Origin: a plasmid
DNA length: 64,000 bases
Reading direction: 5' to 3' (one strand)
Sequence record: CP063550.1
Below the pieces are notes generated by a model. The model searched no databases and was not told where the DNA came from. It saw only the letters and a list, made by a program, of their open reading frames with translations. The position numbers were made by a program, and so were the translations under genes. Below, piece after piece: positions 13,440 through 61,886 of this stretch; positions within the stretch are counted from its first letter, which is position 1; each line of letters starts with the position of its first letter.

Positions 13440-13646
13440 TGAATTAATGGAAATAAGGCTATATATCTGTGCTAGCTATTTTGACTAACCAAAAAAACTT
13501 GCTATAATTCAGGTGTAGTAAAAGGTGCTGGTAACACCTTTTACGAAAATGCTTCGGCAGTGATAATGGGATTGGCTTTTTAAGTTTTTTATTTTGTTCG
13601 CAATCCCTAAGGTCATGTGAATGATCCTAGGGATTGCTAGAATATT

Positions 13647-13871
13647 TTGCAACAGAACCAAAATACGAATAGTTATCAAGCAGCCATATTGACTGCGGTC
13701 AATTTAGGAGGGGATACTGATACTACTGCTGCCGTAACTGGTGCTCTTGCGGGTATTCTTTACGGGGGTGAAGTGATCCCTGAAAATTGGAGAAAATCGC
13801 TTCAAAATGACCAGCTTCTTAAAACGATCAGTCAGAGATTTTGCGATACCGTGCTATCTCAAAGAATTTGA
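13647..13871 (+). pseudogene. C-terminal fragment of an ADP-ribosylglycohydrolase family protein.
   Basis: NLGGDTDTTAAVTGALAGILYG...IPENW is the conserved C-terminal block of that family. Only 74 aa remain. It is preceded by a solo IS6-like IR remnant. Confidence 0.55.
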
Positions 13872-27455: not shown

Positions 27456-28856
27456 ATGGAAACAATGAAAAGAAAATTCACCTTCCCACATAGTTATACA
27501 TTGATTTTTATCTTAATTATTTTGGCTGCAATTTTAACTTGGATAATTCCTAGTGGTCAGTTTGAGACAGTTGTTGAAAACGTCGCAGGTATGGAAAAAA
27601 CAACGGTTGTTCCGGGAACCTATCACCAAATCGATAAGGCAGATTATGGACAAGGTTTTTCCTCTATACTAATGGCACCAGCTGAAGGGATTATTTCAGC
27701 TGTTGAGGTTGTTGCTTTTGTTCTCATCGTTGGTGGTGCCTTCGGGATTATCCTAAAAACGGGAGCCATCGATCGAGGGCTGTTTACCTTAGCAAAAGTT
27801 CTGGGAGACAAGGGGATCTTAGTTATTCCGATGTCGATGATTCTATTCAGCTTAGGAGGATCAACCTTTGGCATGAGCGAGGAAGTCATTCCCTTATTTG
27901 CGGTGTTTATTTCTCTGATGTTTTCTCTTGGCTATGATTCCATGACTGCGATCTTGATTCTATTTTTAAGTACACAAGCGGGATATGTTGGGTCGACGAT
28001 TAATCCCTTCAACGTTTTAATCGCACAGGGAGTAGCTGGCGTTTACGGAAATCCCCTGCTTTGGTTTCGGATGCTATCCTGGATTGTCATTACTGGGATT
28101 TCAATTGTTTTCACCATGCTTTATGCTAGCAGAGTCAAAAAGAATCCACTGTCCTCTATTGTTTATGAGAGTGATTTAAAGGTTAAGCATAAGTTTCAAA
28201 ATTTTGACACTGAAAAAGAGTTTTCAACACAAGATAAACTAATTATCGCCGGTTTTATCGTAGGTTTAGGAATCATGATTTGGGGTATCATTTCCAAGGG
28301 ATGGTATATGGTTGAAATTTCTGCACTATTCTTAGGATTAGGTCTTTTTGCTGGGGGCATCGCTAGATTTTCTCAAAAGGAAATTGCTGAAGCTTTTGTC
28401 GAAGGCTGTTCAGATTTCGCCTATGCTGCTGTAATCATTGGGCTAGCTAGAGGAGTCTTGGTAATCTTGGAAGGTGGAATGATTATTGACACTATTCTAA
28501 ACAGCTTGGCTAACCTTTTAGGTGGTCTTCCAAAATTCCTGTTCACTACGATTCTACTCATTTCTCAAGTAATTGTTTCCTTTTTTGTTCCATCCTCCTC
28601 AGGAGCTGCGGCATTAACGATGCCGGTTATGGCACCATTGGGTGATCTAATGAATGTAAGTCGTGATGTTGTTGTTCTAAGTAACCAGTTTGGAAATGGT
28701 TTAATGAATATTATCTCCCCAACTAGTGGTGTATTACTGGCAGGATTAGCCATCGCAGAGATTAATTTCTCTAAATGGTTTAAGGTTGGCTTCAAAATAT
28801 TTGCCATCTTAACCCTTGTTTCTGCTGTTTTGTTATACATTGCTACACTCTTTTAG
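27456..28856 (+). CDS. YfcC-family membrane transporter (putative basic amino acid/C4-dicarboxylate carrier family).
   Basis: 466 aa with about 12 TM segments. The N-terminal FTFPHSYTLIFILI...TWIIPSG block is typical of YfcC/DcuC-like proteins. Confidence 0.55.
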   Translation: METMKRKFTFPHSYTLIFILIILAAILTWIIPSGQFETVVENVAGMEKTTVVPGTYHQIDKADYGQGFSSILMAPAEGIISAVEVVAFVLIVGGAFGIILKTGAIDRGLFTLAKVLGDKGILVIPMSMILFSLGGSTFGMSEEVIPLFAVFISLMFSLGYDSMTAILILFLSTQAGYVGSTINPFNVLIAQGVAGVYGNPLLWFRMLSWIVITGISIVFTMLYASRVKKNPLSSIVYESDLKVKHKFQNFDTEKEFSTQDKLIIAGFIVGLGIMIWGIISKGWYMVEISALFLGLGLFAGGIARFSQKEIAEAFVEGCSDFAYAAVIIGLARGVLVILEGGMIIDTILNSLANLLGGLPKFLFTTILLISQVIVSFFVPSSSGAAALTMPVMAPLGDLMNVSRDVVVLSNQFGNGLMNIISPTSGVLLAGLAIAEINFSKWFKVGFKIFAILTLVSAVLLYIATLF

Positions 28857-28887: not shown

Positions 28888-29036
28888 TATGATTAAAATA
28901 AATCAATTAGCAGGAATGAATATCCACTATTTATTTTATTCTCTCAAAGAATTTTTCGCTTATCAACAGAAAATTGGTATTTCTTCTGTTGAACTTTGGG
29001 GAGGTGCTCCGCATTTTTTCATAGATGCTTTTACTG
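28888..29036 (+). pseudogene. N-terminal fragment of a sugar-phosphate isomerase/epimerase (TIM barrel, xylose-isomerase-like), truncated by IS1216.
   Basis: About 50 aa (MIKINQLAGMNIHY...VELWGGAPHFF) run directly into the IS6 IR ggttctgttgcaaagttt. Confidence 0.45.
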
Positions 29037-29844
29037 GTTCTGTTGCAAAGTTTTAAATCTACTATCAAATAAGGTAGAATAATAGAAAAAGATAGCAGGA
29101 GGAATGACGATGAATCATTTTAAAGGAAAGCAATTTCAGCAGGATGTGATTATTGTAGCCGTGGGCTACTATCTTCGTTATAACCTTAGCTATCGTGAAG
29201 TTCGAGAAATCTTATATGATCGTGGCATTAACGTTTCTCATACGACGATTTATCGTTGGGTGTAAGAATATGGCAAACTACTCTATCAAATTTGGAAAAA
29301 GAAAAATAAAAAATCCTTTTATTCATGGAAAATGGATGAAACGTACATCAAAATTAAAGGAAAATGGCATTATTTGTATCGAGCCATCGATGCAGATGGT
29401 TTAACCTTGGATATTTGGTTACGTAAAAAACGGGACACACAAGCAGCCTATGCTTTTCTTAAGCGGTTAGTGAAGCAGTTTGATGAACCGAAGGTTGTAG
29501 TCACAGATAAAGCCCCCTCTATTACAAGTGCCTTTAAGAAACTAAAAGAATACGGCTTTTATCAAGGGACAGAACATCGTACCATTAAATACCTGAATAA
29601 TTTGATTGAACAAGACCATCGTCCAGTAAAGAGACGCAATAAATTCTATCGAAGTTTACGCACTGCCTCTACCACGATTAAAGGCATGGAAGCCATCCGA
29701 GGATTATATAAGAAAACCCGAAAAGAAGGCACTCTCTTCGGGTTTTCGGTCTGTACTGAAATCAAGGTATTATTGGGAATCCAAGCTTAAATCATAGATA
29801 CCGTAAGGGACTTTATTCTTTATTTAAAACTTTGCAACAGAACC
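29037..29844 (+). mobile_element. IS1216-like (IS6 family) copy A, 808 bp. The transposase (29104-29790) is inactivated by a nonsense mutation, CAA to TAA, at 29263.
   Basis: It has 18-bp IRs ggttctgttgcaaagttt and aaactttgcaacagaacc. The translated ORF breaks at ...TTIYRWV* where the intact copy reads WVQEYGK. Confidence 0.85.
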
Positions 29845-29921
29845 TAAAGCATTCCCAAAGAAAACATGCTAAAATCGAGACAGAAATGATTTTCGTGTGA
29901 GGTCTGATTGGAGAGAAAATA

Positions 29922-30782
29922 ATGAACATTGAAAAATTTATTACGGCAAGAAAGGCTGCCAACTTATCTCAAAAAGAAGTGTCTGAAGGAATTTGTACAC
30001 AAGCAACATTAAGTAAATTTGAGAACAATGGTCAAGTCCCTTCGTTAAAAATTTTAATCAAATTATGTAATCGAATCAATCTTCCGTTAGTTGAACTTTT
30101 TTCTTCGATGAACGTGATCAATACACAACTTGATGAACAGCTAGAAAAAGCAGAGTTTTCACTGATTACGAGTGAATATGAACAATTGACACAGATTTTA
30201 GCAGCCATTGATCCCAAGGTAATTGACGAGTCTGAGCTGATTGCACGTTACTACTATCTAAAAGGATTTGAAATGATTTTTACGAATGCACCAATTACGG
30301 ATGTGTTGTTCCATTTTGATCAGTTGTTGATGGCAGAAACAGCCAACACGTTGTTTCGTTTATTGGCATATACAGGTATTGGAATGGTCTATGCTAGAGA
30401 AAAAGAGTTGGAAAAAGCAGAAGTTTATTTCAATCGAGTGTTTGAAAAAATTTATACGTATCCGATTCGTACAACAGAAGATATCTGGCGGGTGTTAAAT
30501 ATCGTCTTTCATTGTGGTGTTTTTTTTGCGCAAGACGGTGATTTGGAAACAAGTGATGCACTACTAAATTACGCAATCGATATTTGTTCGGATAACCATT
30601 TGACTTATTACTTAGCACGAGCTGCTGCCCAATTAGCGAAGAACGCACAGGCTAAAAATAAGTCGAAGGCAGAAGTGCTCGAATTGATTCAAGATGCACT
30701 AGCTTTTGCTAAAATTAATAAAAACAAAAAATTAATTGATGAATTAAATCATATGAAAAAAATGATACTATTGATTAACTAA
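29922..30782 (+). CDS. Rgg/GadR/MutR-family (RRNPP-type) transcriptional regulator.
   Basis: It has an N-terminal XRE-type HTH (ARKAANLSQKEVSEGICTQATLSKFENNGQVPSLKIL). The rest of the roughly 286-aa protein is helical and TPR-like, the size typical of Rgg. Confidence 0.65.
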   Translation: MNIEKFITARKAANLSQKEVSEGICTQATLSKFENNGQVPSLKILIKLCNRINLPLVELFSSMNVINTQLDEQLEKAEFSLITSEYEQLTQILAAIDPKVIDESELIARYYYLKGFEMIFTNAPITDVLFHFDQLLMAETANTLFRLLAYTGIGMVYAREKELEKAEVYFNRVFEKIYTYPIRTTEDIWRVLNIVFHCGVFFAQDGDLETSDALLNYAIDICSDNHLTYYLARAAAQLAKNAQAKNKSKAEVLELIQDALAFAKINKNKKLIDELNHMKKMILLIN

Positions 30783-31201
30783 GGAAAAAATACTTATTTT
30801 TGTTATGCTAACTTTGAAAAAATTCACCAAAGATGATTAGGGATAGACGGGTATGGCAGCAAGATAGAGTAATAAAATAAAGTCGTAATTATCGTAAAAT
30901 ACGTTACAAAGCATGCTTGATCTCCGTTTGTCGTTGCAGTATTTATTTTAAGTAGGTTAACCATCAAATAGAAAACGATAGTTAGAGGGAAATAAGCAAC
31001 ACACAAAAATGTGTTGTTTGTTTCCCTTATTTGTTTTTTACAATATAAAATTTTATATTAAAATTACCTTATTATATAAAAAAATATATAAAATCGGTTG
31101 ACAAATAAATCTAGCAGGCGTATCATCTGGTTGTGAAAACAGTAACAAAAATAAAAACTAATTACTCATGTAATCCGTAGTTCAAGTAAAGAAGGTACAA
31201 A

Positions 31202-32134
31202 ATGAATCAGGTGATCGAAGAAACGAAAATCTGGCAAATGATGGGGACAACAATTACATTACAAGTTGGGCATGAAGAGCCTAGTCGATTACTAGCAGAG
31301 TTAGGCGAATGGTTGCACGTTTATGAACATCGCTTCAGCGCACATGATGCAACTTCTGAATTAATGGCCATCAATCAAGCTGCTGGACGACAAGCTGTGA
31401 TTGTACATCCTGAACTTTTTGAGCTCATCAAATTAGGAAAAGCACATAGTTGTGCAAGAAATAGTTATCTGAATATTGCTATTGGTCCGGTTGTACAAAA
31501 ATGGCACATTGGATTTGAAGATGCATTGGTTCCAACAAAAGCAGAGATAACTGAGTTACTTCTGCTAACGGATCCACACCAAATTCAATTAGATGAAAAA
31601 ATGAAAACCGTTTTTTTAACCAAACCAGGAATGATGATTGACTTGGGGGCGTTAGCAAAAGGTTACATTGCAGATAAATTAATTACACATTGCCGAGAGC
31701 GAAATGCAGCGTTTGCTTTAGTTAACTTAGGAGGAAATATCGTTGTTTTTGGTGAATCACCAAGACGTTCGGATGGTGCTTGGCGTATTGGTTTGCGAAA
31801 TCCTAAAGGTTCACGTGAAGAGTCGCTTGCGGTGGTTAAACTAAACAACCAATCTTTAGTTACCTCTGGAATCTACGAACGTTATCTACAAAATGGTTCG
31901 TCAGTGTATCATCACATCATTGATCCGAAAACTGGCTTTCCAGTTAAAAATGACGTAGCAAGCCTGACGATTTTGTCTGATTCTTCTGTAGATGGAGAAA
32001 TCTGGACTACACGTTTATTTGGAGCATCTTCTTTAGAAGTGTTGAAAGCGCTTGAAGAACAGCCGGGTATCGAGGGAGCAGTTGTAACAAAAGAGAATCA
32101 ATTCTTGTATACAAAAGGATTTGAAAAAATTTAG
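31202..32134 (+). CDS. apbE: FAD:protein FMN transferase (ApbE family), apparently cytoplasmic (no signal peptide or lipobox).
   Basis: About 310 aa with the conserved DLGALAKGY(I)AD block and a C-terminal HHIIDPKTG block typical of ApbE. The N-terminus MNQVIEETKIWQMMG is not hydrophobic. Confidence 0.7.
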   Translation: MNQVIEETKIWQMMGTTITLQVGHEEPSRLLAELGEWLHVYEHRFSAHDATSELMAINQAAGRQAVIVHPELFELIKLGKAHSCARNSYLNIAIGPVVQKWHIGFEDALVPTKAEITELLLLTDPHQIQLDEKMKTVFLTKPGMMIDLGALAKGYIADKLITHCRERNAAFALVNLGGNIVVFGESPRRSDGAWRIGLRNPKGSREESLAVVKLNNQSLVTSGIYERYLQNGSSVYHHIIDPKTGFPVKNDVASLTILSDSSVDGEIWTTRLFGASSLEVLKALEEQPGIEGAVVTKENQFLYTKGFEKI

Positions 32135-32176
32135 TACGTGCGAACAGTCAGAAATCGATGTTAGAAAGGAAAGAGA

Positions 32177-32788
32177 ATGAAGATGAAATTTATTGGATTA
32201 GTAGGAACAAATTCAACGCGGTCAACAAACCGTGAATTATTACAGTTTATGAAAAATTATTTTGTAAATGAGGCAGAAATCGAAATTGTCGAAATCAAGG
32301 AGCTGCCACTATTTAACAAACCTGAAAACACAGAACTACCAAATGTTGTTAAAGAAATTGCTGGAAAAATTGAACAAGCAGATGGCGTAATCATCAGCAC
32401 ACCAGAGTATGACCATGCGGTTCCTGCTTCATTGATTAACGCATTAAATTGGCTTTCATATGGTATTTTTCCGTTTGTGGATAAACCAGTGATGATTACC
32501 GGAGCGTCTTATGGCACGTTAGGTTCTTCACGCGCACAAGCACATTTGCGCCAAATATTGGATTCACCAGAGTTAAAGGCACGAATTATGCCAAGCTCAG
32601 AATTTTTATTGGGTCATTCACTCCAAGCCTTTGATGAGCAAGGACGACTCATTGATGAAGAACAAGTCGCAAAATTACGTGAACTATTCAAAGATTTCTT
32701 ACTCTTTGTCACAATCACTAGTCAATTGCAACATGCGCACCAAGCAAATAAACGTGAAGCCGAAAGCTTTTCATGGGAAACGATTTAA
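32177..32788 (+). CDS. NAD(P)H-dependent FMN reductase (flavodoxin-like fold).
   Basis: About 200 aa with an N-terminal MKFIGLVGTNSTRSTNREL block followed by ...ISTPEYDHAVPASLINALNWLS..., the NADPH-dependent FMN reductase pattern. Confidence 0.65.
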   Translation: MKMKFIGLVGTNSTRSTNRELLQFMKNYFVNEAEIEIVEIKELPLFNKPENTELPNVVKEIAGKIEQADGVIISTPEYDHAVPASLINALNWLSYGIFPFVDKPVMITGASYGTLGSSRAQAHLRQILDSPELKARIMPSSEFLLGHSLQAFDEQGRLIDEEQVAKLRELFKDFLLFVTITSQLQHAHQANKREAESFSWETI

Positions 32789-32807
32789 TCGAGGGGAGCA
32801 AACAAAG

Positions 32808-34028
32808 ATGAAATTAATAGGTATCGTCGGATCAGCAGCTGAACTTTCATATAACCGTAAATTATTAACATTTATCCAAAAACAATATCATGAACTATTT
32901 AATTTAGAAATCATTGAAATCAAAGATTTACCTCTGTTCAATCAAGATGATGATCAAACAAATAGTCCTGCTATTCAACAGCTAAATCGCAAAATCTTAA
33001 TGGCTGATGGGGTAATTATTGCTACGCCAGAACACAATCATACGGTTCCAGCAGGATTGAAAAGTGCACTTGAATGGCTATCATTTAAAATCCATCCACT
33101 TGAAAATAAACCTGTAATGGTTGTGGGTGCTTCTTACTACGATCAAGGAACTTCACGCGCGCAATTACACTTGCGCCAAATTTTGGACGCACCAGGCGTG
33201 AATGCATTAGTGATGCCCGGAAATGAATTTTTATTGGGAAAAGCAAAAGAAGCATTTGACCAAGAAGATCGCTTGATTGATCCACGAACTGTTGACTTTT
33301 TAGGCAGTACATTAGCAAGTTTTGTAAAATTCATTAAAGTCGTGTCTACCTTAGCAGGGCCTAAAAAGCTTCCACCAGAAGATTTGCATGCGACAGGAAC
33401 AATTGCTACGACAATACCCGATGTTGATATGTCAGATGATCATTGGTTGGAAAAAGCTTCTGAAGCAGTCGGTGCCGTTTCTGGAAATACTTACGTCAAA
33501 TTAAATCGTGGGTTATTGACAGTGGATCAAATCAATTACTTTTTAGATTCGATGCCGATGGAATTAACTTTTGCAGATAATAATAACCAATTTTTATATT
33601 ATAATTTGCGCCAAGAAGCGAAAGAGATGTTAGCTGCTCGTGTGCCCGGTCAGGTAGGGAATCCATTAGCCAACTGTCACCCAGAAAAATCGTATAAAAA
33701 TGTAGAGTGGGTAATTCAACAACTGCGAAGCGGAGCAACAGATGCGGTACGTGTTCATGTACCAAAACAAGTGCCAGAAAAATATATTGTGCATAATTAC
33801 CAAGCAATGCATGATGAAAATGGAGAGTATGCTGGAATCAATGAATACATTCTTGATTTCAAACCAATCATTGAGTGGTATTTACAACAAACGGGTCAAC
33901 AACTTGTTGGAAATGAAGATGCGGTTTCAAGTGCATCTGTTCATGGTGGAAAAACAGATGCAGTAACCAGCGCCAGCACACACGATGAAACTGCAGTAGA
34001 TGCAGTTTCGAGTGCTTCTGTAAAATAA
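32808..34028 (+). CDS. Fusion protein: an N-terminal NAD(P)H-dependent FMN reductase domain, a central domain of unknown function, and a C-terminal tail with three tandem D-A-V-[ST]-S-A-S flavinylation-like motifs.
   Basis: The start is placed at MKLIGIVGSAAELSYNRKL (RBS gagggg), because the longer ORF overlaps the previous gene by about 160 nt. Residues 1-190 parallel the 32177 protein. The C-terminus reads ...EDAVSSASVHGGKTDAVTSASTHDETAVDAVSSASVK. Confidence 0.6.
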   Translation: MKLIGIVGSAAELSYNRKLLTFIQKQYHELFNLEIIEIKDLPLFNQDDDQTNSPAIQQLNRKILMADGVIIATPEHNHTVPAGLKSALEWLSFKIHPLENKPVMVVGASYYDQGTSRAQLHLRQILDAPGVNALVMPGNEFLLGKAKEAFDQEDRLIDPRTVDFLGSTLASFVKFIKVVSTLAGPKKLPPEDLHATGTIATTIPDVDMSDDHWLEKASEAVGAVSGNTYVKLNRGLLTVDQINYFLDSMPMELTFADNNNQFLYYNLRQEAKEMLAARVPGQVGNPLANCHPEKSYKNVEWVIQQLRSGATDAVRVHVPKQVPEKYIVHNYQAMHDENGEYAGINEYILDFKPIIEWYLQQTGQQLVGNEDAVSSASVHGGKTDAVTSASTHDETAVDAVSSASVK

Positions 34029-34031
34029 AAA

Positions 34032-34840
34032 GGTTCTGTTGCAAAGTTTTAAATAAAGAATAAAGTCCCTTACGGTATCTATGATTTAAGCTGGGATTCC
34101 CAATAATACCTTGATTTCAGTACAGACCGAAAACCCGAAGAGAGTGCCTTCTTTTCGGGTTTTCTTATATAATCCTCGGATGGCTTCCATGCCTTTAATC
34201 GTGGTAGAGGCAGTGCGTAAACTTCGATAGAATTTATTGCGTCTCTTTACTGGACGATGGTCTTGTTCAATCAAATTATTCAGGTATTTAATGGTACGAT
34301 GTTCTGTCCCTTGATAAAAGCCGTATTCTTTTAGTTTCTTAAAGGCACTTGTAATAGAGGGGGCTTTATCTGTGACTACAACCTTCGGTTCATCAAACTG
34401 CTTCACTAACCGCTTAAGAAAAGCATAGGCTGCTTGTGTGTCCCGTTTTTTACGTAACCAAATATCCAAGGTTAAACCATCTGCATCGATGGCTCGATAC
34501 AAATAATGCCATTTTCCTTTAATTTTGATGTACGTTTCATCCATTTTCCATGAATAAAAGGATTTTTTATTTTTCTTTTTCCAAATTTGATAGAGTAGTT
34601 TGCCATATTCTTGCACCCAACGATAAATCGTCGCATGAGAAACGTTAATGCCACGATCATATAAGATTTCTTGAACTTCACGATAGCTAAGGTTATAACG
34701 AAGATAGTAGCCCACGGCTACAATAATCACATCCTGCTGAAATTGCTTTCCTTTAAAATGATTCATCGTCATTCCTCCTGCTATCTTTTTCTATTATTCT
34801 ACCTTATTTGATAGTAGATTTAAAACTTTGCAACAGAACC
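34032..34840 (-). mobile_element. IS1216-like (IS6 family) copy B with an intact 228-aa transposase (34086-34772).
   Basis: It has the same IRs as copy A, and the transposase is near-identical to the IS1216E type. Confidence 0.85.
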
Positions 34841-35261: not shown

Positions 35262-35483
35262 ATGACTACGGCAGAAATGATTAAAGAACTGTGTGAGCAA
35301 ATGAATATAAGTGTTTCCGAACTTGCTAGACGTATTGGACAGACTCCACAGAATTTCAATAAGAAATTACAACGAGAAACGGTAACCTTAGATGAGTTGA
35401 AAGCGATTGCTGATGTGCTAGGTGTCAAGTTTGTGCAGGCTTTTATATTGCCTGATGGCAATGAAATAAAGATAGGTAATTAG
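35262..35483 (+). CDS. XRE-family helix-turn-helix transcriptional regulator (Cro/CI-like).
   Basis: 73 aa, with the HTH ISVSELARRIGQTPQNFNKKLQ. Confidence 0.65.
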   Translation: MTTAEMIKELCEQMNISVSELARRIGQTPQNFNKKLQRETVTLDELKAIADVLGVKFVQAFILPDGNEIKIGN

Positions 35484-35498
35484 GAGGTGTAATTTGTA

Positions 35499-36341
35499 TT
35501 GAAAATCATAACAATAAATGATGTTGAGTATGCTGTATTTGCTGCTAATGAAGGTACTTCCAAACCACAACCTCATATCATAGAAACGAAATCTGGTACT
35601 ATTCCAGAAGGAAAACAACTGAGTTTATTAAAAGAATATCTTAAGCAGAATGATATTTCCCCAATAAAAGGAGCAACAACATATTGGTGCATTGACAAGG
35701 TTCTTAAGCTTGATTCAAGTAAAGAAAAAACTATAAGTGAAACAATCCATAAACAAAAATACTTATCTTTAACTGAAGAAAATATTGAGAAACAGCATAA
35801 GTTTGTAGGTGCAAGCTCTAATTATGGGAAAGAAGGTCTAATAATACATGATGTTTTGAATGCATTTCCTCTTCATAATGATTTAAATACTATTGCGATG
35901 AAGATTGCGGTAATTGATGTAACAAATTCAACACATCTTTCTCAATATAAGAGCAGGTTGTCTCTATATGATTTGGCTAAAGTAATTCTGGAGATTCCAA
36001 ATTTTGATGATCGGTTGGCAAAAGGAGATCCTCAGTTGATAAATATTATCGCAAGGAACATTGGTGCAGTTAATATGTTCTCATTTGCATCCAAGTACTG
36101 TACATATCATAATGTGGAAGTGTGTGGGAGAGATGATTACTCCATCTTTGATGGTATCGTTAAAAATACTCTTCCACACTATATCCAAGGACTAACTACG
36201 AATAAGATTGATACGTGGCGAAGAAGTTTTGATTACGAGGCATTTAACGAATGTGTTGGAAAACTACTTGATGAAAATAATATACATATTCCTTTTAGAA
36301 GAAGAAAGTTAGATCACTTCTTGTGGTATGCGAATAGGTAG
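35499..36341 (+). CDS. Hypothetical protein of 280 aa with a TTG start and no recognisable domain. Possibly Abi/HEPN-like, unconfirmed.
   Basis: The RBS aggagg lies 11 nt upstream. It is closely coupled to the XRE gene upstream and the exonuclease gene downstream. A C-terminal RRRKLDHFLWY is a weak Rx4-6H-like feature. Confidence 0.4.
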   Translation: MKIITINDVEYAVFAANEGTSKPQPHIIETKSGTIPEGKQLSLLKEYLKQNDISPIKGATTYWCIDKVLKLDSSKEKTISETIHKQKYLSLTEENIEKQHKFVGASSNYGKEGLIIHDVLNAFPLHNDLNTIAMKIAVIDVTNSTHLSQYKSRLSLYDLAKVILEIPNFDDRLAKGDPQLINIIARNIGAVNMFSFASKYCTYHNVEVCGRDDYSIFDGIVKNTLPHYIQGLTTNKIDTWRRSFDYEAFNECVGKLLDENNIHIPFRRRKLDHFLWYANR

Positions 36342-36403
36342 AATATAAGAAAAAGGCATCGTAAAAGTGATTCTGGATAAAATTAATGGGGGAGGAAATA
36401 ATA

Positions 36404-38206
36404 GTGGGATTATTTGATTTTCTAAAGAAAAAACAAGGAAAGGTTAGTAAACACGTTGATTATCAACTGGCTTCTAGTCTATTTCGTACTGGTAAAGTTT
36501 TTGCTGAAAAATTGGAAGTGGACATATCAAATGTAGATGAGTTTCGTAAAACTTTTATCGCTTTTGATGTGGAAACAACTGGCCTAAATTCTTCTTCAGA
36601 TAGAATTGTAGAGATTGGTGCGGTGCTATTTAAAGAAGGAGTTCCAATTCAATCATTCGGAACTCTTGTCAATCCAAAAGTTAGAATTGCAGCCTCAGCT
36701 TCGGCAATAAATAATATAACTAATGAAATGCTAAACTCTGCTCCAAATGAGCAGGAAGTTTACCCCCAGTTGGTAGAATTTTTAGGAGATGCACTAGATG
36801 GAAAAATCACTATGTGTGCACACAATGCAAGTTTCGATTTTGGATTTTTAAGTAACACATTTTCTAGACTTGGGTATGATGCTAAAATTAAGTATGTTGA
36901 TACTCTGAGTCTCTCTAGAAAACATATAAAAGGCATTGTAAATCATAAGCAAGAGACTGTAGCGGAATATTTCGGATTAATAAATGACACTGCCCATAGA
37001 GCGGAATCAGATGCAGATATATGCGGAAAGATTTTTTGGGGTGTTTTAGATATTATTGAGGAGTCGTTGGAAGAACAAAAAAAGCAAATAGAAAAGATGA
37101 CTCCAGACATAAAAGAACTTGAAGCTTGTGCTTTTATTCAAGATATTATTGAGAAAAAAGGATGCGACACCAGTTGGATCAGGTATCGAAAAAACAGTAA
37201 TAATTATGTCGATGTAACTTGTCTATATACATTCTTAAAGTTTAAGTTTGCTAAGAAGGGAAATTACATCATTATTAGAAAAGATGCTACAAATGGAATT
37301 GATTTACCTATAGAACCTTGTACTGTAAGTGAAGGCGGTACAACAAATGTGCGAGTCTATTTTCGTAGCCCCTTTGACTTAACGCCTCTTTCAAATTATA
37401 TTTTCAGTGCTTATAGCGATTGTTATAATTCTATGAATGAATATATGAGTGTTAGTAATTACACTAAAAAAGAAGCAGAGCAAAGCCTTAGTATGCTGAA
37501 ATCTATTTCAAAATCAGCGATGAAAGAGTTATTATTCGATGCAAAAAATCGTGGATATGATGAGACTGAAGTTAACCTAAATATTGAAAAAGTGATATCT
37601 AGAGAAGATGTAATTATTAACGGGTTGCATAATCGAGTTTCATTAAACAAGATACGAAATATAGGGAATTGGGAGAAAGGATTTGATGCAGGTTATCCAT
37701 ATTGGGAACGTGGAGAAACTGCTAGGAAAAATGGCAAAGTAGATGAAGCTATTGCACTTTTTGATAAAGCTCGATATAACGGCTATGATGCTCCTGCGCT
37801 ATATGATTCTTATGCTAAAGCTTATCGAAAAATTAAGGATTACGATAATGAAATTCTCATTCTTGATGAAGGAATTATGCGTAAAACACGGCACGATGTT
37901 GGTACTTTAGAGGCTCGTAGGGATAAGGCAATTAAGCTATTATTTGCTAAACAAGAGGCAGAGCGGATAGCTAAGGAAAAATCTGATTTTCTAAAAGCGA
38001 ACAAAAAAGAGGATGCGATTAGTGAGCCTAGCAAGAAGCGTGGAAGACAGATTATTCAAATGACTGATGATGGAACAATAATAAAAGAATTCGATACTAT
38101 AGCTTCTGCTGTAAAAGAAGTTGGCGTTAACTCAAAAAGTATTAGGGATGCTGCAAATGGAGTTCAAAAACATGCTGGAGGATACTACTGGAAATACAAA
38201 GATTAG
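36404..38206 (+). CDS. DEDDh (DnaQ-like) 3'-5' exonuclease domain fused to a roughly 370-aa helical extension and a C-terminal NUMOD1-like DNA-binding motif.
   Basis: The exonuclease motifs are FDVETTGL (Exo I), HNASFDFGFL (Exo II) and HRAESDADI (Exo III, DEDDh). The C-terminus QIIQMTDDGTIIKEFDTIASAVKEVGVNSKSIRDAANGVQKHAGGYYWKY matches the NUMOD1 pattern of homing-endonuclease DNA-binding modules. GTG start with RBS gggggagg. Confidence 0.6.
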   Translation: MGLFDFLKKKQGKVSKHVDYQLASSLFRTGKVFAEKLEVDISNVDEFRKTFIAFDVETTGLNSSSDRIVEIGAVLFKEGVPIQSFGTLVNPKVRIAASASAINNITNEMLNSAPNEQEVYPQLVEFLGDALDGKITMCAHNASFDFGFLSNTFSRLGYDAKIKYVDTLSLSRKHIKGIVNHKQETVAEYFGLINDTAHRAESDADICGKIFWGVLDIIEESLEEQKKQIEKMTPDIKELEACAFIQDIIEKKGCDTSWIRYRKNSNNYVDVTCLYTFLKFKFAKKGNYIIIRKDATNGIDLPIEPCTVSEGGTTNVRVYFRSPFDLTPLSNYIFSAYSDCYNSMNEYMSVSNYTKKEAEQSLSMLKSISKSAMKELLFDAKNRGYDETEVNLNIEKVISREDVIINGLHNRVSLNKIRNIGNWEKGFDAGYPYWERGETARKNGKVDEAIALFDKARYNGYDAPALYDSYAKAYRKIKDYDNEILILDEGIMRKTRHDVGTLEARRDKAIKLLFAKQEAERIAKEKSDFLKANKKEDAISEPSKKRGRQIIQMTDDGTIIKEFDTIASAVKEVGVNSKSIRDAANGVQKHAGGYYWKYKD

Positions 38207-52624: not shown

Positions 52625-53432
52625 GGTTCTGTTGCAAAGTTTTCCAAAAAATCTATTTTAGTGTAAAATTGAGAAAAAAGACAGAGAGGACAGAGTAATG
52701 AATCATTTTAAAGGCAAACAATTCAAAAAAGACGTCATTATTGTCGCTGTTGGTTACTACCTGCGTTACAATCTAAGCTATCGTGAAGTTCAGGAATTGT
52801 GATATGATCGTGGAATAAATGTTTGTCATACTACGATTTATCGTTGGGTACAAGAGTACAGCAAAGTCCTCTATTATCTTTGGAAGAAGAAAAATAGACA
52901 ATCCTTCTATTCATGGAAAATGGACGAAACCTATATCAAAATTAAGGGACGTTGGCATTATCTTTATCGTGCAATTGATGCGGACGGCTTAACCTTAGAT
53001 ATCTGGTTACGAAAGAAACGGGACACACAAGCAGCCTATGCTTTTCTTAAGCGGTTAGTGAAGCAGTTTGATGAACCGAAGGTTGTAGTCACAGATAAAG
53101 CCCCCTCTATTACAAGTGCCTTTAAGAAACTAAAAGAATACGGCTTTTATCAAGGGACAGAACATCGTACCATTAAATACCTGAATAATTTGATTGAACA
53201 AGACCATCGTCCAGTAAAGAGACGCAATAAATTCTATCGAAGTTTACGCACTGCCTCTACCACGATTAAAGGCATGGAAGCCATTCGAGGATTATATAAG
53301 AAAACCCGAAAAGAAGGCACTCTCTTCGGGTTTTCGGTCTGTACTGAAATCAAGGTATTATTGGGAATCCCAGCTTAAATCATAGATACCGTAAGGGATT
53401 TTATTCTTTATTTAAAACTTTGCAACAGAACC
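52625..53432 (+). mobile_element. Chimeric IS6-family element (copy C). The left third matches the type-2 IS1216-like copies (D/E) and the right two-thirds matches the type-1 copies (A/B). The transposase is inactivated by a nonsense mutation (TTA to TGA) at about 52801.
   Basis: The left IR, the leader and codons 1 to about 110 are identical to copies D/E (…LQSVGLYTKTEH type). From about 53025 the sequence (…LVKQFDEPKVVVTDKAPSITSAFKKLKEYGFYQG…) and the right end are identical to copies A/B. Confidence 0.8.
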
Positions 53433-56378: not shown

Positions 56379-57187
56379 GGGTTCTGTTGCAAAGTTTTCC
56401 AAAAAATCTATTTTAGTGTAAAATTGAGAAAAAAGACAGAGAGGACAGAGTAATGAATCATTTTAAAGGCAAACAATTCAAAAAAGACGTCATTATTGTC
56501 GCTGTTGGTTACTACCTGCGTTACAATCTAAGCTATCGTGAAGTTCAGGAATTGTTATATGATCGTGGAATAAATGTTTGTCATACTACGATTTATCGTT
56601 GGGTACAAGAGTACAGCAAAGTCCTCTATTATCTTTGGAAGAAGAAAAATAGACAATCCTTCTATTCATGGAAAATGGACGAAACCTATATCAAAATTAA
56701 GGGACGTTGGCATTATCTTTATCGTGCAATTGATGCGGACGGCTTAACCTTAGATATCTGGTTACGAAAGAAACGGGATACGCAAGCAGCCTATGCTTTC
56801 TTAAAACGACTCCATAAACAGTTTGGTGAGCCGAAAGCAATTGTGACCGATAAAGCACCTTCTCTTGGCTCCGCCTTTAGAAAGTTACAGAGTGTGGGTT
56901 TATATACTAAGACAGAGCACCGAACTGTGAAGTATCTTAACAATTTAATAGAACAAGACCATCGACCTATTAAACGACGAAATAAATTTTATCAAAGTCT
57001 CCGTACAGCCTCTTCCACGATTAAGGGCATGGAGACCATTCGAGGAATATATAAAAAGAACCGAAGAAATGGAACGCTCTTCGGCTTTTCGGTGTCTACT
57101 GAAATCAAGGTATTAATGGGAGTAACAGCCTAAGATATTTGGAGTTCAGAGAGGGCGCGTTTGATTTTCAAACTTCGCAACAGAACC
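56379..57187 (+). mobile_element. IS1216-like (IS6 family, type 2) copy D with an intact 226-aa transposase (56453-57133).
   Basis: The IRs are ggttctgttgcaaagttt and aaacttcgcaacagaacc. Confidence 0.85.
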
Positions 57188-61078: not shown

Positions 61079-61886
61079 GGTTCTGTTGCGAAGTTTGAAA
61101 ATCAAACGCGCCCTCTCTGAACTCCAAATATCTTAGGCTGTTACTCCCATTAATACCTTGATTTCAGTAGACACCGAAAAGCCGAAGAGCGTTCCATTTC
61201 TTCGGTTCTTTTTATATATTCCTCGAATGGTCTCCATGCCCTTAATCGTGGAAGAGGCTGTACGGAGACTTTGATAAAATTTATTTCGTCGTTTAATAGG
61301 TCGATGGTCTTGTTCTATTAAATTGTTAAGATACTTCACAGTTCGGTGCTCTGTCTTAGTATATAAACCCACACTCTGTAACTTTCTAAAGGCGGAGCCA
61401 AGAGAAGGTGCTTTATCGGTCACAATTGCTTTCGGCTCACCAAACTGTTTATGGAGTCGTTTTAAGAAAGCATAGGCTGCTTGCGTATCCCGTTTCTTTC
61501 GTAACCAGATATCTAAGGTTAAGCCGTCCGCATCAATTGCACGATAAAGATAATGCCAACGTCCCTTAATTTTGATATAGGTTTCGTCCATTTTCCATGA
61601 ATAGAAGGATTGTCTATTTTTCTTCTTCCAAAGATAATAGAGGACTTTGCTGTACTCTTGTACCCAACGATAAATCGTAGTATGACAAACATTTATTCCA
61701 CGATCATATAACAATTCCTGAACTTCACGATAGCTTAGATTGTAACGCAGGTAGTAACCAACAGCGACAATAATGACGTCTTTTTTGAATTGTTTGCCTT
61801 TAAAATGATTCATTACTCTGTCCTCTCTGTCTTTTTTCTCAATTTTACACTAAAATAGATTTTTTGGAAAACTTTGCAACAGAACC
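61079..61886 (-). mobile_element. IS1216-like (IS6 family, type 2) copy E with an intact transposase (61133-61813).
   Basis: The IRs are ggttctgttgcgaagttt and aaactttgcaacagaacc. The transposase is identical in protein sequence to copy D. Confidence 0.85.

Follow-up and report, generated by a model that had tools for sequence, protein, structure and literature searches.

A leaderless ApbE and an FMN reductase-PAS_10 fusion with tandem flavinylation-type motifs on an IS1216-flanked cassette of Enterococcus faecium megaplasmids

What might an ApbE flavin transferase without an export signal act on, when the gene next but one to its own encodes a reductase ending in three copies of an ApbE-type acceptor motif? 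This question is raised by a four-gene module on the + strand at 29922-34028 of a 64,000-nucleotide stretch of plasmid DNA (record CP063550.1), which as a whole is called the window here. The module comprises genes for a regulator, for ApbE (the transferase that moves flavin mononucleotide, FMN, from flavin adenine dinucleotide, FAD, onto proteins), for a stand-alone FMN_red protein and for a fusion of FMN_red with PAS_10 that carries the motifs. An original prediction, made from the letters of the window, had proposed these genes as a flavinylation module; its coordinates for the four open reading frames (ORFs) were confirmed, with a fusion of 406 amino acids instead of 407.

The fusion protein and its class

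We assigned the domains of the fusion (32808-34028, + strand) with Pfam. Residues 1-147 matched FMN_red (PF03358, E=7.7e-37), and residues 1-185 found their best match, in sequence and in fold, among the ChrR/YieF-type NAD(P)H quinone/chromate reductases (3svl, 1rtt), which differ in holding FMN non-covalently and in lacking a tail, a PAS_10 domain and an ApbE partner. The region that had been described as a domain of unknown function was identified as PAS_10 (residues 242-351, 33531-33860 on the + strand; PF13596, E=1.5e-30), matching 2qkp and 3cax, two structures that are solved but uncharacterised. A residue survey showed that His291 in the CHP motif of this domain is invariant, while some lineages have Val or Thr-Val in place of Cys290. 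In the AlphaFold model (predicted template modelling score 0.50) the two domains are folded and residues 369-406 are disordered, with a predicted local distance difference test (pLDDT) value below 50. No Pfam match to FMN_bind (PF04205) was obtained in the proteins of the module. Some sources label the fusion and its neighbouring reductase 'fumarate reductase flavoprotein subunit precursor', a label that found no support in this analysis.

The disordered tail contains three matches to the flavinylation pattern, all on the + strand: DAVSSAS at 33918-33938 (presumed acceptor Ser377), DAVTSAS at 33957-33977 (presumed acceptor Ser390) and DAVSSAS at 33999-34019 (presumed acceptor Ser404, two residues from the C-terminus). 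We scanned the 64 kb window in six frames for D..[ST][GS]A[ST]. The results showed three matches in 127,996 codons, all of them in the tail of the fusion, indicating that the tail is not a chance match. No tandem repeat at the DNA level was found to underlie the three motifs. Among 129 distinct homologue tails, at least one motif was present in 127 (1-4 each): none occurred in 2 tails, one in 8, two in 62, three in 46 and four in 11, and in 116 of the 127 the final motif was separated from the C-terminus by 2-3 residues. The search pattern itself prescribes Asp at the first and Ala at the sixth position. Position 4 was Ser in 280 motifs and Thr in 30, position 5 was Gly in 173 and Ser in 136, and position 7 was Ser in 257 and Thr in 53. 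Gly and Ser exchange at the same aligned sites (DAVSGAT against DAVSSAS, for example), indicating that the Ser form in the window is a normal variant of the family. The motifs of the tail are thus conserved sites of the flavinylation type, interchangeable with the canonical DAVSGA[ST], and the resemblance to ApbE sites from which the prediction had started was borne out by this conservation.

Proteins of this kind have been described. Huang, Meheust, Barquera and Light (2024, mSystems) searched GTDB for FMN_red proteins co-localised with apbE (PMC11334425), and reported covalent flavin on the FMN_red proteins WP_021723379.1 of Lactococcus lactis and WP_205872264.1 of Lactococcus taiwanensis. 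Flavinylation of both proteins needed the Ser/Thr of the motif and was lost when this residue was mutated to Ala, and the authors took the tail to bring FMN into the ordinary FMN_red site (PMC11334425). According to the results section the FMN_red proteins were co-expressed with the cognate apbE, while according to the methods purified Listeria ApbE was added to lysates; this mismatch leaves the activity of the cognate leaderless ApbEs ambiguous in that work (PMC11334425). The sections consulted make no mention of PAS_10, of a constant tail-less partner, of a cytoplasmic location or of an all-Ser variant of the motif.

The window fusion shares the defining features of this Firmicutes class, namely an FMN_red domain (PF03358), a long C-terminal region that is unstructured and bears motifs of the ApbE type (here with Ser for Gly) and an apbE gene in the same cluster, and an orthologous operon of L. 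lactis has the same gene order of apbE, FMN_red and FMN_red-PAS_10-tail. The paper, however, describes a homodimer model and tails with one or two motifs, whereas the window fusion carries three, each with Ser at position 5. We conclude that the fusion is a member of the ApbE-flavinylated FMN_red class defined and tested in Lactococcus in 2024. The kind of system is not a new one; the finding rediscovers a class already published (PMC11334425). Our literature search on the function of the module returned nothing useful beyond this paper and an ApbE review.

The transferase, its putative targets and the conserved gene set

A lipoprotein signal is typical of the ApbE family yet dispensable, and cytosolic members exist. 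The ApbE of the module (31202-32134, + strand, 310 amino acids) matched PF02424 with E=1.2e-72, residues 14-291 aligning to profile positions 1-263 of 266, which amounts to a full-length match; this match and those of the two FMN_red domains were the outcome of the hidden Markov model check suggested for the enzymes. The nearest solved ApbE was 7esa (E=2.5e-57), with DLGAxAKG, TSGIYERY, YHHIxDPKTG and S(I/V)DG(D/E) as common blocks, and an alignment to 7esa and 4xdt retained DLGAxAKG, TSG.YER and YHHIxDPxTG; which of these residues count as catalytic follows in part from PMC12052999. The N-terminus, MNQVIEETKIWQMMGT, has no hydrophobic leader, and with the PF02424 domain starting at residue 14 there is no room for either a signal peptide or a lipobox, as had been claimed. 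The same holds for 55 neighbouring ApbE homologues, in which no lipoprotein signal was found: the in-frame room 5' of the aligned start was at most about 57 residues, mostly below 20, and in no case hydrophobic-looking. Both reductases begin directly at their first beta-strand. Since none of the three proteins has a leader, a secreted or extracytosolic reading was rejected, and the ApbE was grouped with the cytosolic minority of its family.

Several known systems share part of this arrangement. Cytosolic ApbEs have been described, for instance in Klebsiella pneumoniae (PMC12052999). There, as summarised in the same source, a leaderless ApbE likewise serves a soluble cytoplasmic oxidoreductase, but the acceptor is a folded FMN_bind domain in an enzyme of the fumarate reductase type; the acceptor in the window fusion would be the disordered tail at the end of an FMN_red/PAS_10 protein that has no FAD_binding_2 domain. 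Listeria FmnB, which acts with PplA in flavin-based extracellular electron transfer, is the nearest solved sequence (7esa) and the same chemistry is to be expected; FmnB, however, is a secreted lipoprotein that acts outside the membrane on FMN_bind domains, whereas the window ApbE and its putative targets have no leader. Several ApbE sites per chain are also known from multi-flavinylated proteins, but these contain folded FMN_bind domains in repeat, and secretion is predicted for them (Meheust 2021, PMC8238504), while the window fusion has neither FMN_bind nor a leader and carries bare motifs 13-14 residues apart. Clusters without signal peptides were removed from that survey (PMC8238504). ApbE needs no more than a seven-residue motif at the terminus of a protein (PMC12052999), as in the engineered 'flavin-tag' and 'flavin-fixing' constructs of Tong et al., where FMN tethered near a non-covalent site gave a covalent flavoenzyme (summarised in PMC12052999). 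Those are laboratory constructs; the window fusion would be a natural, conserved version.

We then compared the gene set across relatives. The fusion had 1421 homologues at E<1e-5, and both FMN_red and PAS_10 were present in all of the top 120 listed, from which domain content was taken. With one genome scanned for each species, the first 600 matches to the pattern gave at least 490 confirmed relatives, and all locus counts given here refer to the best 80 of these at least 490. Hundreds of relatives occur in Enterococcus, Streptococcus, Lactococcus, lactobacilli and Bacillaceae. The stand-alone FMN_red protein of the window (32177-32788, + strand, 203 amino acids; PF03358, E=2.9e-34), a presumed partner subunit, has a counterpart directly upstream of the fusion in 79 of the 80 loci, and none of these 79 paralogues carries a motif. 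ApbE lies within 7 kb of the fusion in 55 loci, upstream in Lactobacillales and downstream in Bacillaceae, so the co-occurrence raised at the outset stands for most loci but is not universal. Beyond the four genes, no neighbour that could serve as a functional clue was common to more than 21 of the 80 loci.

The orthologous operon of L. lactis lies on plasmid pLLN8-1 (L081, 4043-7871) and encodes a Crp/Fnr-family regulator, ApbE, an FMN_red protein of 201 amino acids and an FMN_red-PAS_10-tail protein of 403 amino acids, which is 55% identical to the window fusion and has two DATSGAS motifs. In this operon the Crp/Fnr protein takes the place of the RRNPP-like regulator found in the window, nrdEF is close by, and the PAS_10 domain has no CHP Cys (STVHSSLPP).

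The regulator and the IS1216 flanks

The first gene of the module (29922-30782, + strand) encodes a 286-amino-acid protein with an XRE-type helix-turn-helix (HTH; HTH_3, E=1.6e-11) and a part resembling tetratricopeptide repeats (TPR), for which the profile matches were weak. It had been called an Rgg/RRNPP regulator. No Rgg-specific model was among the NCBIfam and Pfam hits at E<=0.01, and its homologues are named only as HTH or TPR proteins; the Rgg identity was rejected on the missing model match. The protein does show the RRNPP layout of an N-terminal HTH followed by an all-helical TPR-like sensor in about 290 amino acids. Foldseek with its AlphaFold model (pLDDT 88) placed PlcR first (template modelling score 0.65), followed by ComR, Rgg2/3 and PrgX. 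As judged from the predicted structure, the regulator has an RRNPP fold that is nearest to PlcR, so the RRNPP half of the assignment stood. No convincing small ORF for a cognate peptide pheromone was found in 30783-31201. A homologue of the regulator adjoins apbE in 21 of the 80 loci, and in several relatives the two genes abut with a small gap or none.

Two signals were noted between the regulator gene and apbE, both on the + strand. A terminator-like hairpin at 30985-31028, 3' of the regulator gene, has a 19-pair stem followed by a T run. At 31098-31126 lies a candidate promoter of the sigma-70 type (TTGACA-17-TATCAT) that would serve apbE and both reductase genes; it is proposed from its match to 11 of 12 consensus positions. 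The region gave no Rfam match to a riboswitch or other RNA at E<=1.

The module stands between two copies of the insertion sequence (IS) IS1216, as had been noted in the original prediction. The left copy (29036-29844, + strand) is a complete 809 bp element with perfect 18-nt terminal repeats at 29036 and 29844, and its transposase frame is broken into ORFs at 29104-29265 and 29332-29790. The right copy (34032-34840, - strand), also complete with 809 bp and perfect terminal repeats, has an intact transposase of 228 amino acids that matched Pfam DDE_Tnp_IS240, and starts 3 bases after the stop codon of the fusion. The segment between them (29845-34031, + strand) runs exactly from IS end to IS end and holds the whole four-gene module. 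We compared this segment with contigs of Enterococcus thailandicus (L093, 7924-12112). The results showed 99.3% identity over 4189 bases from end to end, and on the E. thailandicus chromosome the same four genes stand without any IS between mannosidase/PTS (phosphotransferase system) genes and truA. This end-to-end identity with an IS-free locus indicates that the cassette, as far as sequence can tell, is an IS1216 capture of a chromosomal operon from an E. thailandicus-like source onto an E. faecium megaplasmid. Two IS1216 copies with intact terminal repeats flank the cargo in the manner of a compound transposon; no target-site duplication was found outside the pair, the outer flanks GCTTTTACT and AAAGAACT being different. 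E. faecium megaplasmids of 200-295 kb were 100% identical to the region, at least 80% of the module was present in 87 PLSDB plasmids, and the annotation around it on the megaplasmids was an IS-rich mosaic.

The surroundings of the cassette gave further observations. The 64 kb hold five full-length IS1216 copies (29036-29844, 34032-34840, 52625-53432, 56380-57187 and 61079-61886) and an isolated IS1216 terminal repeat with 2 mismatches at 13642-13659. A 55-amino-acid ORF at 28889-29056, preceded by a YfcC/DcuC-family transporter gene (27456-28856), enters the left end of the left IS1216 and looks like the start of a gene truncated by the insertion. On the other side, 3' of the right IS1216, 35262-38206 holds a small HTH gene and genes for a 280-amino-acid protein, which is annotated as PF27257 HI_0787_N in related contigs, and for a 606-amino-acid protein with an RNase_T-type exonuclease domain; this trio is kept together with the cassette on plasmids. 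The identical 406-amino-acid fusion was indexed in 1397 blocks of an assembly collection, some of them contigs above 1 Mb with the same plasmid-type flanks. These long contigs suggest cointegrates of megaplasmid and chromosome, or assembly joins, in some E. faecium genomes.

How the module may work

We consider it likely that the operon is a self-contained system for maturing a cytoplasmic flavoprotein and for using it as a reductase. This proposal starts from the domain identities, the absent export signal and the conservation of motifs and gene set, all of which were computed here. FMN_red enzymes are dimers with their flavin sites at the interface. The leaderless ApbE would use cytosolic FAD to attach FMN, as a phosphoester, to the 406-amino-acid protein, at the final Ser of every D-A-V-[ST]-S-A-S motif of its disordered tail, and this protein would pair through its FMN_red domain with the tail-less 203-amino-acid paralogue. 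The tethered FMN would then fill one or more FMN_red sites as a cofactor that cannot be lost, and the complex would oxidise NAD(P)H and pass the electrons to a further acceptor, probably with some involvement of PAS_10. The use of the Ser-for-Gly motifs, the heterodimer, the docking place of the flavin and the electron acceptor are the parts that we infer.

Several observations weigh against this proposal. The PAS_10 architecture of the tested WP_021723379.1 and WP_205872264.1 was not confirmed: the supplement of the paper came without sequences, and neither a tested accession nor the named L. taiwanensis hit appeared in the cluster listings or in a search with the L. lactis protein. It is nevertheless likely that the tested accessions share the architecture of the fusion. 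In addition, 25 of the 80 loci have no ApbE within 7 kb, and those of Streptococcus suis, Lactiplantibacillus and Furfurilactobacillus, which are among the loci without it, nevertheless carry 2-4 motifs. It is gene adjacency in these genomes that suggests the heterodimer. The motifs themselves call for the same caution, as all three in the window carry Ser at the canonical Gly position. A Gly-to-Ala exchange cut flavinylation to about half with a K. pneumoniae enzyme (PMC12052999), and our literature search found no test of Ser at position 5. The three motifs could on this account be weak or inactive as ApbE sites, in which case the tail would be a degenerate low-complexity linker and both reductases would work in the ordinary way with non-covalent FMN. 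We regard this as improbable: Ser accounts for 136 of the 310 family motifs and alternates with Gly, including within proteins that mix both, the frame, spacing and C-terminal position of the motifs are kept, and the apbE gene alongside is intact, with 99.3% conservation relative to its chromosomal source.

A different difficulty comes from the number of motifs in relatives. An exhaustive search of representatives for wider architectures (5752 hits) showed that a tail of as many as 7-8 motifs can come straight after FMN_red, without a fused PAS_10. Chains with 6-8 motifs exceed the flavin sites of a dimer, which indicates that simple 'flavin-fixing' cannot be the whole story. The multi-flavin electron carrier of the original prediction therefore stays as one of two live readings, next to the published one of a tethered FMN in the ordinary FMN_red site (PMC11334425). 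In such a carrier the tail flavins would be reduced at the FMN_red dimer and swing their electrons to PAS_10 or to a bound partner, so that PAS_10 and tail form a functional unit; we hold this to be possible but the less probable of the two. The surplus of motifs favours it, and units of PAS_10 with motifs do recur by themselves. A 711-amino-acid metagenomic protein (P0042) consists of FMN_red, one motif, PAS_10, three motifs, PAS_10, three adjacent motifs (DATSGASDGTTGASDATTSAS) and a partial PAS_10. At three Atopostipes loci (L048, 3706-4341; L057, 4004-4636; L027, 3111-3803), separate PAS_10 proteins of 210-230 amino acids lie beside the operon and end in 1-2 motifs. In Secundilactobacillus pentosiphilus (L092, 5001-6393) an FMN_red protein carries seven DATSGAS motifs and has a 36-residue repeat, and the gene directly downstream encodes a separate PAS_10 protein. 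Ordinary DUF438/PAS_10 proteins outside the module, by contrast, have no tail, which also speaks for a relay.

Other data do not fit the relay. A Lentilactobacillus hilgardii-like locus (L091, 5001-6893) encodes FMN_red with 6 motifs and has ApbE as the next gene downstream, but no PAS_10 within 5 kb. PAS_10 has no known cofactor or function and its CHP motif does not always keep the Cys, some of the PAS_10-only database entries are gene fragments, and extra motifs could merely raise the odds that one site is modified. The stronger claim that PAS_10 and a flavinylation tail together make up a covalent-flavin module not recognised before, in which FMN arms comparable to lipoyl or phosphopantetheine arms carry electrons from the FMN_red heterodimer to PAS_10, is accordingly offered as tentative. 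A role as a redox or oxygen sensor instead of a metabolic enzyme, in which PAS_10 would be the sensing domain, the flavin state would report NAD(P)H or O2 and readout would fall to the RRNPP-like regulator, would account for the dedicated regulator kept beside apbE in 21 loci, for the Crp/Fnr regulator at the same position in L. lactis and for the company of hemerythrin and DUF438 domains in which PAS_10 is found elsewhere. The three proteins have no output domain, however, and most loci are without this regulator, so that we think a sensor very improbable.

ApbE flavinylation is usually presented as a means of retaining flavins against diffusion outside the cell. For this operon and its hundreds of relatives, the same chemistry is proposed to take place inside the cytoplasm and on a disordered tail, in a family of 1421 homologues and at least 490 genomic loci. 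What is new in the present copy is an IS1216-borne member of the class on clinical E. faecium megaplasmids, and the link to PAS_10 together with the constant tail-less partner provides concrete handles for experiments. If PAS_10 does work with swinging FMN arms, Lactobacillales would gain a multi-flavin relay in the cytosol whose catalytic or sensing output would be new.

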